Shown here: in pieces, positions 16,739-38,965 of the stretch | Layout: each line of letters opens with the position of its first letter | Position numbering within the stretch: the stretch's first letter is position 1 | From: Escherichia coli | GTDB lineage: Bacteria; Pseudomonadota; Gammaproteobacteria; Enterobacterales; Enterobacteriaceae | NCBI RefSeq assembly: GCF_009931435.1 | Contig: NZ_CP043414.1 | Length of the DNA stretch: 64,000 nt | Reading direction: 5' to 3' (one strand) | Made by a program: the position numbers and the translations under genes | The notes under the pieces: generated by a model | What the model was told of the DNA's origin: nothing | The model's database searches: none | Seen by the model: the letters and a program-made list of their open reading frames with translations, nothing else

Positions 16739-16839
16739 GCCGCGCATGATAGCAGAAAACGCGGCCATGAATGAGATCGAGCACACATTTTATGCAACAA
16801 CAAATTATCTGTTGCAGTTATGAGTGATGGAGATCACAT

Positions 16840-17394
16840 TTACTCTTCAGAATCTTCTTCCAGCTCGTCCCACATTGCACTAATAGCATCGCGGGTTAGC
16901 GGTGCCATGGTGCGCCAGAAAGGCGTAGTTGCATGGGCCTCCACTTTGCCAAGGAACGCACCACACCAGGGTAACAGATACTCACTGAACAGTGTTTCCA
17001 GTGCTTCGCTCTCATCTTCCGTTGACTGATCTTCCAGCCAGGAAGCCGCGAGCAGCAATGTACCGATGTGATCGGCTGGCGTATCCGCTAATGGCATCCC
17101 TCGTTCGGAAAGAAAAGCGCGCACTTCCGCTTCCGTCGCGCCCTCAACCCATGCGCTACGATATGGCGGCACAGCACATTCATCGCCGATAAACAACGCA
17201 TTGTATTCGGCAGAGACTTGCGCCATATCACAGCTTTTCTGTAAACGTGTCAGTAACTCATCCTGCTCCAGTGGCCAGTTCGCAGCCAGTTTCCCCTCAC
17301 GAATCAGGGTAAACAGCGGCACCAGTAAAGGATCTTGCGGTTGGCGGTAATAGAGCGAACCCAGCACACGACAGAGGATAGAAAACTCGTTCAT
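16840..17394 (-). CDS. ycdY: TorD-family redox enzyme maturation chaperone YcdY
   Basis: 184-aa ORF; sequence recognised as YcdY; upstream partner of ycdX. Confidence 0.9.
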   Translation of the reverse strand: MNEFSILCRVLGSLYYRQPQDPLLVPLFTLIREGKLAANWPLEQDELLTRLQKSCDMAQVSAEYNALFIGDECAVPPYRSAWVEGATEAEVRAFLSERGMPLADTPADHIGTLLLAASWLEDQSTEDESEALETLFSEYLLPWCGAFLGKVEAHATTPFWRTMAPLTRDAISAMWDELEEDSEE

Positions 17395-33071: not shown

Positions 33072-34580
<1,509 letters not shown>

Positions 34581-34768
34581 CTAAAGTCTCCAAAAAATTA
34601 TTATCGGCAATGTCGAAACTTGCCGTTATATCTGCCACCGGAACGGGGTAACAGAGTTTATGTTTTCCCAGGGCGACCGTATCCTGCCGGAAGCGCTGGT
34701 TATTCACAATCGATTTAACACACCATTTACATTAAATTTTAGTGCTCAGCGATACTATTTTTCATCAG

Positions 34769-34976
34769 GTTGCACTCCCTCACATTTTTTGCGGTTGCAC
34801 CTTTCAAAAATGTTAACTGCCGCAGAGAAAAAGTCTGAGTTATTTTTTTAATCCCTGTCATATCGATTTCTTTTATTAACATTTCATTCATTTTTAAGCT
34901 TGCTACGCAGGTCACATTTAACATGGTTGCACAAAGTTGCAACATCATGGATATTTCACGATAACGTTAAGTTGCA
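34769..34976. promoter_or_regulatory. put control region with five GTTGCA motifs (PutA operator half-sites) between divergent putP and putA
   Basis: GTTGCA at about 34769, 34794, 34926, 34936 (as palindromic GTTGCAAC) and 34971; PutA is known to bind GTTGCA in the put intergenic DNA. Confidence 0.7.
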
Positions 34977-35002
34977 CCTTTCAGAACAACAGGAGTAATG
35001 GC

Positions 35003-38000
35003 ATGGGAACCACCACCATGGGGGTTAAGCTGGACGACGCGACGCGTGAACGCATTAAGTCTGCCGCGACACGTATCGATCGCACACCGCACTGGTTAAT
35101 TAAGCAGGCGATTTTTTCTTATCTTGAACAACTGGAAAACAGCGATACTCTGCCGGAGCTACCTGCGCTGCTTTCTGGCGCGGCCAATGAGAGCGATGAA
35201 GTACCGAATCCGGCAGAGGAACCACACCAGCCATTCCTCGACTTTGCCGAGCAAATTTTGCCACAGTCGGTTTCCCGTGCGGCTATCACCGCCGCCTATC
35301 GCCGCCCGGAAACCGAAGCGGTTTCTATGCTGCTGGAACAAGCTCGCCTGCCGCAGCCGGTTGCTGAACAGGCGCATAAACTGGCGTATCAACTGGCCGA
35401 TAAACTGCGTAATCAAAAAAATGCCAGTGGTCGCGCAGGCATGGTTCAGGGATTATTGCAGGAGTTTTCGCTGTCATCGCAGGAAGGCGTGGCGCTGATG
35501 TGTCTGGCGGAAGCGCTATTGCGTATTCCCGACAAAGCCACCCGTGATGCGTTAATACGCGACAAAATCAGCAACGGTAACTGGCAGTCACATATTGGTC
35601 GTAGCCCGTCGCTGTTTGTTAATGCCGCCACCTGGGGGCTTCTCTTTACCGGCAAACTGGTTTCTACCCATAACGAAGCCAGCCTCTCGCGTTCGCTGAA
35701 TCGCATTATCGGTAAGAGTGGCGAACCGCTGATCCGCAAAGGTGTGGATATGGCGATGCGTCTGATGGGCGAGCAGTTCGTCACTGGTGAAACCATCGCG
35801 GAAGCGTTAGCCAATGCCCGCAAGCTGGAAGAGAAAGGTTTCCGTTACTCCTACGATATGCTGGGCGAAGCCGCACTGACCGCAGCGGACGCGCAGGCAT
35901 ATATGGTTTCCTACCAGCAGGCGATTCACGCTATTGGTAAAGCCTCCAATGGTCGTGGCATCTATGAAGGTCCAGGCATTTCAATCAAGCTGTCGGCGCT
36001 GCATCCGCGCTACAGCCGCGCCCAGTACGATCGGGTAATGGAAGAGCTTTACCCGCGTCTGAAATCACTCACCTTGCTGGCGCGTCAGTACGATATTGGT
36101 ATTAACATTGATGCCGAAGAGGCCGATCGTCTGGAGATCTCCCTCGATCTGTTGGAAAAGCTTTGTTTCGAGCCTGAACTGGCAGGCTGGAACGGCATCG
36201 GTTTTGTTATTCAGGCTTATCAAAAACGCTGCCCGCTGGTGATCGATTACCTGATTGATCTCGCCACCCGCAGCCGTCGTCGTCTGATGATTCGCCTGGT
36301 GAAAGGCGCGTACTGGGATAGTGAAATCAAACGTGCGCAAATGGACGGCCTTGAAGGTTATCCGGTTTATACCCGCAAGGTGTATACCGACGTTTCTTAT
36401 CTCGCCTGTGCGAAAAAGCTGCTGGCGGTGCCGAATCTAATCTACCCGCAGTTCGCAACGCACAACGCCCATACGCTGGCGGCAATTTATCAACTGGCGG
36501 GTCAAAACTACTATCCGGGTCAGTACGAGTTCCAGTGCCTGCATGGTATGGGCGAGCCACTGTATGAGCAGGTCACCGGGAAAGTTGCCGACGGTAAACT
36601 TAACCGACCGTGTCGTATTTATGCTCCGGTCGGTACCCATGAAACACTGCTGGCATATCTGGTGCGTCGCCTGCTGGAAAACGGTGCTAACACCTCGTTT
36701 GTTAACCGTATTGCCGACACCTCTTTGCCACTGGATGAACTGGTCGCCGATCCGGTCACTGCTGTAGAACAACTGGCACAACAGGAAGGGCAAACTGGAT
36801 TACCCCATCCGAAAATTCCCCTGCCGCGCGATCTTTACGGTCACGGGCGCGACAACTCGGCAGGGCTGGATCTCGCTAACGAACACCGGCTGGCATCCCT
36901 CTCTTCTGCCCTGCTCAATAGTGCACTGCAAAAATGGCAGGCCTTGCCAATGCTGGAACAACCGGTAGCGGCAGGTGAGATGTCGCCCGTTATTAACCCT
37001 GCGGAACCGAAAGATATTGTGGGCTTTGTGCGTGAAGCCACGCCGCGTGAAGTAGAACAGGCGCTGGAAAGTGCAGTTAATAACGCGCCAATCTGGTTTG
37101 CCACGCCTCCGGCCGAACGCGCGGCGATTTTGCATCGCGCTGCCGTACTGATGGAAAGCCAGATGCAGCAACTGATTGGTATTCTGGTGCGTGAAGCCGG
37201 AAAAACCTTCAGTAACGCCATTGCCGAAGTGCGCGAAGCGGTCGATTTTCTCCACTACTACGCCGGACAGGTGCGGGATGATTTCGCTAACGAAACCCAC
37301 CGTCCATTAGGGCCTGTGGTGTGTATCAGCCCGTGGAATTTCCCGCTGGCGATTTTCACCGGGCAAATCGCTGCCGCACTGGCGGCAGGTAACAGCGTAC
37401 TGGCAAAACCGGCAGAACAAACGCCGCTGATTGCCGCACAAGGGATTGCCATTTTGCTGGAAGCGGGCGTACCGCCAGGCGTGGTGCAGTTGTTGCCCGG
37501 TCAGGGTGAAACCGTAGGTGCACAACTGACGGGTGATGATCGCGTACGCGGGGTGATGTTTACCGGCTCAACCGAAGTCGCTACGTTACTGCAACGCAAT
37601 ATCGCCAGCCGCCTGGACGCTCAGGGCCGCCCAATTCCACTCATCGCAGAAACCGGCGGCATGAACGCGATGATTGTCGATTCCTCCGCCCTGACCGAAC
37701 AGGTCGTCGTGGATGTACTGGCCTCGGCCTTCGACAGTGCAGGTCAGCGTTGTTCGGCACTGCGCGTGCTGTGTCTGCAAGATGAAATTGCCGACCACAC
37801 GCTGAAAATGCTGCGCGGCGCAATGGCCGAATGCCGGATGGGTAATCCGGGTCGCCTGACCACCGATATCGGTCCGGTGATTGATGGCGAAGCGAAGACC
37901 AATATTGAGCGCCATATTCAGACCATGCGTAGCAAAGGCCGTCCGGTGTTCCAGGCGGTGCGGGAAAACAGCGAAGATGCCCGTGAATGGCAAAGCGGCA

Positions 38001-38965
38001 CCTTTGTCGCCCCGACGCTGATCGAACTGGATGACTTTGCCGAATTGCAAAAAGAGGTCTTTGGTCCGGTGCTGCATGTGGTGCGTTACAACCGTAACCA
38101 GCTCCCAGAGCTGATCGAGCAGATTAACGCTTCCGGTTATGGTCTGACGCTTGGCGTTCATACACGTATTGATGAAACCATTGCCCAGGTCACTGGCTCG
38201 GCCCATGTTGGTAACCTGTATGTTAACCGTAATATGGTGGGCGCAGTGGTGGGTGTGCAGCCGTTCGGCGGCGAAGGGTTGTCCGGTACCGGGCCGAAAG
38301 CAGGCGGTCCGCTCTATCTCTATCGTCTGCTGGCGAATCGCCCGGAAAGTGCGCTGGCGGTGACGCTCGCGCGTCAGGATGCAGAGTATCCGGTCGATGC
38401 GCAGTTGAAAGCCGCATTGACTCAGCCACTGAATGCACTGCGGGAATGGGCAGCAAATCGTCCAGAATTGCAGGCGTTATGTACGCAATATGGCGAGCTG
38501 GCGCAGGCAGGAACACAACGATTGCTGCCAGGGCCGACGGGTGAACGCAACACCTGGACGCTGCTGCCGCGTGAGCGCGTATTGTGTATCGCGGATGATG
38601 AACAGGATGCGCTGACACAGCTCGCCGCCGTGCTGGCGGTGGGCAGCCAGGTACTGTGGCCGGATGACACGCTGCATCGTCAGTTAGTGAAGGCATTGCC
38701 ATCGGCAGTCAGCGAACGTATTCAACTGGCGAAAGCGGAAAATATAACCGCTCAACCATTTGATGCGGTGATCTTCCACGGTGATTCGGATCAGCTTCGC
38801 GCATTGTGTGAAGCCGTTGCCGCGCGGGATGGTGCAATTGTTTCAGTGCAGGGTTTTGCCCGTGGCGAAAGCAATATCCTTCTGGAACGGCTGTATATCG
38901 AACGCTCGCTGAGCGTGAATACCGCTGCCGCTGGCGGTAACGCCAGTTTAATGACGATCGGTTAA
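35003..38965 (+). CDS. putA: Bifunctional proline dehydrogenase / P5C dehydrogenase and autorepressor PutA
   Basis: ORF 34937..38965; start at ATG 35003 (MGTTTMGVKLDDATRERIKSAA..., RHH DNA-binding N-terminus) with AGGAG RBS; 1320 aa. Confidence 0.96.
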   Translation: MGTTTMGVKLDDATRERIKSAATRIDRTPHWLIKQAIFSYLEQLENSDTLPELPALLSGAANESDEVPNPAEEPHQPFLDFAEQILPQSVSRAAITAAYRRPETEAVSMLLEQARLPQPVAEQAHKLAYQLADKLRNQKNASGRAGMVQGLLQEFSLSSQEGVALMCLAEALLRIPDKATRDALIRDKISNGNWQSHIGRSPSLFVNAATWGLLFTGKLVSTHNEASLSRSLNRIIGKSGEPLIRKGVDMAMRLMGEQFVTGETIAEALANARKLEEKGFRYSYDMLGEAALTAADAQAYMVSYQQAIHAIGKASNGRGIYEGPGISIKLSALHPRYSRAQYDRVMEELYPRLKSLTLLARQYDIGINIDAEEADRLEISLDLLEKLCFEPELAGWNGIGFVIQAYQKRCPLVIDYLIDLATRSRRRLMIRLVKGAYWDSEIKRAQMDGLEGYPVYTRKVYTDVSYLACAKKLLAVPNLIYPQFATHNAHTLAAIYQLAGQNYYPGQYEFQCLHGMGEPLYEQVTGKVADGKLNRPCRIYAPVGTHETLLAYLVRRLLENGANTSFVNRIADTSLPLDELVADPVTAVEQLAQQEGQTGLPHPKIPLPRDLYGHGRDNSAGLDLANEHRLASLSSALLNSALQKWQALPMLEQPVAAGEMSPVINPAEPKDIVGFVREATPREVEQALESAVNNAPIWFATPPAERAAILHRAAVLMESQMQQLIGILVREAGKTFSNAIAEVREAVDFLHYYAGQVRDDFANETHRPLGPVVCISPWNFPLAIFTGQIAAALAAGNSVLAKPAEQTPLIAAQGIAILLEAGVPPGVVQLLPGQGETVGAQLTGDDRVRGVMFTGSTEVATLLQRNIASRLDAQGRPIPLIAETGGMNAMIVDSSALTEQVVVDVLASAFDSAGQRCSALRVLCLQDEIADHTLKMLRGAMAECRMGNPGRLTTDIGPVIDGEAKTNIERHIQTMRSKGRPVFQAVRENSEDAREWQSGTFVAPTLIELDDFAELQKEVFGPVLHVVRYNRNQLPELIEQINASGYGLTLGVHTRIDETIAQVTGSAHVGNLYVNRNMVGAVVGVQPFGGEGLSGTGPKAGGPLYLYRLLANRPESALAVTLARQDAEYPVDAQLKAALTQPLNALREWAANRPELQALCTQYGELAQAGTQRLLPGPTGERNTWTLLPRERVLCIADDEQDALTQLAAVLAVGSQVLWPDDTLHRQLVKALPSAVSERIQLAKAENITAQPFDAVIFHGDSDQLRALCEAVAARDGAIVSVQGFARGESNILLERLYIERSLSVNTAAAGGNASLMTIG

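Follow-up and report, generated by a model that had tools for sequence, protein, structure and literature searches.

Five GTTGCA hexamers between putP and putA of Escherichia coli are very probably the known PutA operators

The DNA analysed here, referred to as the window, is a stretch of 64,000 nucleotides from Escherichia coli in which two divergent genes enclose a non-coding spacer of 422 bp (34581-35002). On the minus strand lies putP (33072-34580), the divergent target gene, which encodes the sodium/proline symporter of 502 amino acids and matches the NCBIfam equivalog NF011948 with 1141.6 bits. On the plus strand lies putA (35003-38965), which encodes a trifunctional repressor, proline dehydrogenase and P5C dehydrogenase of 1320 amino acids and matches the equivalog NF008772 over its full length with 2656.1 bits. 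The longest open reading frame in the putA frame reaches back to a TTG at 34937; the protein itself, beginning with MGTTTMGVKLDD, starts at the ATG at 35003. RefSeq names the flanking genes putP and putA in K-12 too, so that both equivalog HMM matches and the RefSeq annotation agree with the original prediction, which had placed its motifs between these two genes. In K-12 BW2952, according to the RefSeq annotation, the gene pair is flanked by efeUOB and, at its other end, by rutR. The first 52 codons of putA (35003-35158, plus strand) encode a DNA-binding domain of the ribbon-helix-helix (RHH) type that is identical at 52/52 residues to the chains of PDB entries 2GPE and 2RBF. Trifunctional PutA with its N-terminal RHH domain represses both putA and putP, and upon reduction of its flavin by proline PutA switches from DNA to the membrane (PMC5293562, PMC5879082).

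Of 5426 complete E. coli genomes, 5420 carry this spacer, at 95-100% identity. Among the E. coli matches to positions 34581-35003, seven fall on records classed as plasmids, and the match in EC22 (NZ_CM169479.1) is limited to the putA-proximal 36% of the spacer; rearrangements or misassemblies are possible explanations of these cases.

All five GTTGCA copies of the region lie within this spacer. An exact-match search of the window places them on the plus strand at 34769, 34794, 34926, 34936 and 34971, all oriented in the same way as putA and with a total extent of 208 bp (34769-34976), which bears out the predicted five copies over about 210 bp. Operator 1 (O1, 34769-34774) is the putP-proximal copy and has the conserved extended form AGGTTGCACT, which coincides with the conserved run around it (34767-34776) in an alignment of 22 genera. 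Operator 2 (O2, 34794-34799) follows at 25 bp from O1 within a conserved GGTTGCACC (34793-34801); the start codon of putP is 189-214 bp away from this pair. Operator 3 (O3, 34926-34931) is contained in GGTTGCAC, with TTGCAC at 34927-34932. At 10 bp from O3, operator 4 (O4, 34936-34943) is the one copy foreseen as palindromic; it reads GTTGCAAC and therefore also matches the minus strand, at 34938. Operator 5 (O5, 34971-34976), 32 bp before the putA ATG, lies in GTTGCACCTTTCA and is specific to E. coli. O5 with its flank is identical to O2 with its flank at 15 of 16 positions (GTTGCACCTTTCAGAA versus GTTGCACCTTTCAAAA), so the two form a 16-nt direct repeat.

Could such a cluster arise from chance, from base composition or from a coding constraint? 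Across the window as a whole GTTGCA is not enriched, with 54 matches against 55.0 +/- 8.8 in dinucleotide shuffles, and this equality with expectation is what speaks for chance. The local picture is different: counting both strands, the 208 bp hold six hits (five sites), where the rest of the window predicts 0.157, an excess of about 40-fold, which answers the proposed comparison of the motif count with random expectation. The corresponding Poisson probability is 1.8e-8 for the six hits and 7e-7 for the five sites, and five or more hits arose in none of the 20,000 sequences made by mononucleotide shuffling of the spacer. The runner-up among 208-bp stretches of the 64 kb has three hits. It corresponds to 16793-16933, with three hits in 141 bp (16793 on the minus strand, 16811 and 16928 on the plus strand), appears to be coding sequence and, given the number of windows scanned, is compatible with chance. 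The cluster in the put spacer, by contrast, is far beyond chance even when about 300 independent 208-bp windows are allowed for.

In favor of a coding constraint, RefSeq annotates a minus-strand open reading frame for a 69-aa 'hypothetical protein' (34739-34948; WP_000979516.1 in K-12) that spans O1-O4. Its frame is broken in E. albertii, with no open stretch longer than 38 codons, and other genera do not conserve it either, so coding constraint was rejected as the source of the cluster. Since even E. albertii does not keep the frame, the annotation is probably a spurious gene call.

A wider comparison covered 80 put loci from species-representative genomes, scanned with PutA residues 1-400 and ranging from Escherichia to Yersinia, Serratia, Erwinia and Pantoea; these loci plus K-12 make up a set of 81, in which three E. 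coli loci are designated L001-L003. In all 80 scanned loci putP is divergent from putA, and the spacers measure 269-684 bp. The 81 loci together contain 415 copies of GTTGCA in 36 kb of spacer (11.5/kb) and 261 in 540 kb of flanking sequence (0.48/kb). Likewise, no enriched hexamer was more abundant in a scan of all hexamers in the 81 spacers, where GTTGCA reached 415 copies with 17.3 expected and occurred in every locus (81/81). With a 24-fold spacer enrichment across 81 independent loci added to the local Poisson probability of about 2e-8, an origin of the cluster in chance, composition or coding retains an almost negligible probability.

Conservation extends from the motif itself to the arrangement of its copies. 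The O3/O4 pair with its 10-bp spacing, GTTGCAC-AAA-GTTGCAAC, is present in 81/81 loci, and a pair of the O1/O2 type, with a spacing of 22-26 bp, in 58/81, the spacing being 25 bp in 50 of these. In 47 of the 58 loci with both pairs the O2-O3 distance is 130-136 bp, while the intervening sequence is mostly poorly conserved, which suggests a constraint on spacing or phasing. In the 22-genus alignment, conservation is 100% in every column of O1, O3 and O4 and 95-100% in those of O2, against a mean identity to the window of 62% in the remaining spacer columns. In the block GGTTGCACAAAGTTGCAACAT (34925-34945) no column falls below 90% identity to the window, and the twelve motif columns of O3 and O4 are 100% identical. 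The DNA-reading beta-strand of PutA, TTMGVKLD, is identical in 81/81 loci, an invariance that matches that of the hexamer. The put regions of Salmonella, Citrobacter, Klebsiella, Enterobacter, Serratia, Yersinia, Erwinia and Pantoea thus all have O3/O4 and mostly O1/O2; the other Enterobacterales share the divergent putP-putA arrangement and the RHH beta-strand with E. coli and differ from it in having no site at -32. The expectation that the motif positions would be conserved therefore holds across Enterobacterales for O1-O4 and fails for O5, which is conserved in E. coli only.

Some loci depart from this layout on the putA side. In the Klebsiella oxytoca locus (L006), the stretch from the O3/O4 pair to the putA ribosome-binding site is longer by about 135 bp, with O4 at 200 bp from the ATG instead of 67 bp, and long O4-putA leaders are likewise found in some Serratia, Cedecea and Yersinia loci.

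Within the species, the K-12 put region has the same 422-bp spacer, motif distances and RHH domain as the window. The spacer of K-12 BW2952 differs at five of 422 positions (34667, 34753, 34778, 34910 and 34983), all of them SNPs outside the hexamers. Measured to the putA ATG, the five GTTGCA copies stand at -234, -209, -77, -67 and -32 in both sequences, so that the suggested alignment to the K-12 control region recovers every motif at an identical distance. These five sites we take to be the PutA operators mapped by Zhou et al. 2008 (J Mol Biol 381:174), who reportedly defined five operators by gel shift, each with GTTGCA and each bound by PutA, with three critical for the repression of putA and two for that of putP. 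The same study is said to include a crystal structure of PutA52 on operator 2 (PDB 2RBF), in which the contacts comprise the hexamer and three flanking bases (9 bp), and to report that affinity is tuned by the bases flanking the hexamer. By genomic SELEX, PutA has a single target in the genome of E. coli, the putA/putP spacer (PMC8249747), and for its binding to put control DNA of 420 bp the Kd is about 45-58 nM (PMC5293562). The reading of the motifs as PutA operators, offered at the outset, is thus upheld by the K-12 positions, the 52/52 match of the RHH domain and the PutA gSELEX peak at the spacer (PMC8249747).

The sites also stand in a suggestive relation to a putative putA promoter. The hexamer GATATT (34950-34955, plus strand) lies 17 bp downstream of the TTGCAC in O3 and is a candidate -10 element; of the 78 loci matching the pattern, 77 have GATATT or GATAGT (GATAkT) at one constant distance from O4, and the alignment columns of the hexamer are conserved. 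Because the 17-bp spacing to GATAkT is conserved, TTGCAC in O3 would be the putA -35 element. A simple promoter scan missed this promoter because its -35 matches the consensus at only 3/6 positions. In the arrangement we infer, O3 overlaps the -35, O4 lies in the promoter spacer and transcription would start near 34962, which would put O5 about 10 bp downstream of the start, in the 5' leader. On the putP strand there is a single sigma-70-like match (34765-34736), which adjoins O1/O2 and lies in a poorly conserved stretch. As to the other sites, a sigma-70 -35 reading of O1, O2 and O5 was tried and dropped, as no -10-like hexamer lies 16-18 bp downstream of them on the plus strand and the promoter scan called none there.

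Several further elements accompany the operators. TTAACA/TGTTAA occurs four times in the spacer, at 34715, 34876 and 34918 on the plus strand and at 34811 on the minus strand, each time in a conserved block. TTAACA is the second most abundant enriched hexamer of the 81 loci (280 against 11.8 expected, about 24-fold, in 81/81), and by eye none of the four copies has a -10 partner at 16-18 bp. A 21-nt direct repeat, TCACATTT-N6-GGTTGCAC, at 34780-34800 and 34912-34932 puts a conserved TCACA at equal offset upstream of O2 and O3. In addition, TGCTACGCAGGTCACA (34901-34916) resembles a CRP site by eye, with 8/10 of the core, at a non-canonical distance from the putative putA start.

Such neighbors, together with the position of the O3 TTGCAC 17 bp upstream of a conserved GATAkT, lend some color to the idea that the hexamers are weak -35-like elements (TTGCAc resembling TTGACA) or sites of another factor such as CRP, the conserved TCACA and TTAACA motifs lying nearby. 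On that account, however, it is odd that all five copies point toward putA although two of them should serve putP, and the conserved unit GGTTGCAC is wider than a -35 hexamer. Furthermore, gSELEX places PutA itself on the spacer (PMC8249747), and we regard the promoter or foreign-factor account as very improbable. With high confidence, the five GTTGCA hexamers are PutA's operators in the E. coli region that controls the divergent genes putP and putA. This conclusion is favored because the motifs, their local enrichment, the gene identities and the K-12 positions all agree, because O1-O4 are conserved with the O3/O4 pair in 81/81 loci, because the RHH domain is the crystallised one and the single gSELEX peak is at the spacer (PMC8249747), and because the promoter-like TTGCAC-17 bp-GATAkT overlaps O3/O4. 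The array is the known five-operator array of the E. coli put control region.

How would these operators act? Where proline is scarce, PutA would be cytoplasmic, and both putA and putP would be repressed. At each GTTGCA, an RHH dimer of PutA would insert its two-stranded beta-sheet into the major groove and read the hexamer plus a few flanking bases. O3, O4 and O5 would act on the putA promoter, and the distal sites O1 and O2, located toward putP, on putP. Once proline reduces the FAD, PutA would move to the membrane, the operators would be emptied, and putA and putP would be transcribed.

RHH repressors read the major groove by means of a beta-sheet, and a comparison with other members of this group shows both kinship and difference. 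The PutA RHH of Pseudomonas putida (PDB 2JXG/2JXH/2JXI) comes from a different genus, has a homologous domain of 45 residues (E = 2.3e-20) and also recognises GTTGCA. Arc, MetJ, CopG and NikR have the same RHH fold, and CopG-family chains appear as distant PDB matches (E about 2e-4). In these repressors, dimers of dimers usually occupy tandem or palindromic subsites in a cooperative manner, whereas PutA places one dimer on a single asymmetric site of about 9 bp, with several such sites scattered over 208 bp.

The status of O5 deserves separate consideration. Exact O5 is limited to the three E. coli loci; the 78 others, E. albertii and Salmonella included, lack it. Its columns are 9-41% conserved in the 22-genus alignment, and E. 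albertii reads GCTATACCTTT at the position. This distribution would fit a reading in which only O1-O4 are selected operators and O5 is a recent, near-neutral gain of E. coli with little regulatory role. Within E. coli, however, O5 is nearly fixed: at least 5403 of 5426 genomes retain an intact core, 4286 and 1117 of them with the two common 34-mers centered on O5. In this count a megablast match to the 34-nt query needs an exact 28-mer, which always contains the hexamer. The resemblance of O5 to O2 also continues beyond the hexamer, over 15 of 16 bases with the flank. Finally, all five sites reportedly bind PutA and three are needed for putA repression (Zhou et al. 2008), and a dispensable O5 seems unlikely to us next to the reading of all five copies as operators.

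The origin of the fifth copy can be considered as well. In E. coli, TGCTAC (34901-34906), about 25 bp upstream of O3, has one mismatch to an inverted GTTGCA, and an exact inverted GTTGCA (TGCAAC) occupies the same position in E. albertii, S. enterica arizonae, Kluyvera, Mangrovibacter and some Pantoea. TGCTAC at 34901 and an O5 confined to E. coli together suggest turnover of an extra operator. E. coli may have gained O5 as a direct-repeat copy of O2, and TGCTAC, at -102, may be a decayed inverted site.

A single strain offers a further rearrangement of the same region. E. coli 2013C-3492 (L082, NZ_CP027445.1, 2288-2532) carries a clean deletion of 177 bp, corresponding to 34810-34986 of the window, exactly between the O2 and O5 direct repeats GTTGCACCTTTCA. 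The spacer measures 245 bp there instead of 422, and one hybrid operator is left before the putA ribosome-binding site, with O3, O4 and the putative putA promoter gone.

A bolder interpretation would see a core of four sites plus a labile extra one, assembled with a second factor into a nucleoprotein complex of fixed geometry, possibly looped, and subject to operator turnover. It is prompted by the constrained geometry of the O1/O2 and O3/O4 pairs, the co-conserved TCACAyTTT-N6-GGTTGCAC units and the four TTAACA motifs, and we hold it only tentatively, as rather doubtful. To our knowledge, neither a fixed-geometry put complex nor this operator turnover has been described previously.

The putP side of the spacer contains RNA-level features of its own. 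A conserved hairpin in the putP 5' leader (34631-34655, minus strand), about 65 nt upstream of the putP AUG, has a stem of 8-9 bp and a 7-nt loop with an invariant CGUUCCGG; on the plus strand the loop reads CCGGAACG (34638-34645). Across 21 genera, 6/8 stem pairs show compensatory double changes, and the motif is present in 64/81 Enterobacterales loci. An Rfam search of 34400-35200 returned no family at E <= 1. A published 3'-end map contains an RNA 3' end 45 nt upstream of putP with a uORF-associated tag (ymdG-putP) (PMC7815308, supplementary file 3); by coordinate conversion this end falls at about 34625 of the window, 6 nt past the hairpin. A less regular inverted repeat CGGCAA...TTGCCG (about 34600-34625, minus strand) separates this hairpin from the putP ribosome-binding site and is followed by AATAATTTTTT on the putP strand. 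By inspection of the alignment this repeat seems to covary, for example as CGACA/TGTCG in Klebsiella, and might represent an attenuator-like element.

In the put control region, a long-studied case, a 'trigger enzyme' represses the operon to which it belongs; the identification of its operators here is a correct but ordinary finding. Its value lies in confirmation, as a real regulatory array was recognised from sequence alone. For the Enterobacterales, comparison of the loci refines the picture of this array into four ancient, position-fixed operators and what appears to be one innovation of E. coli.
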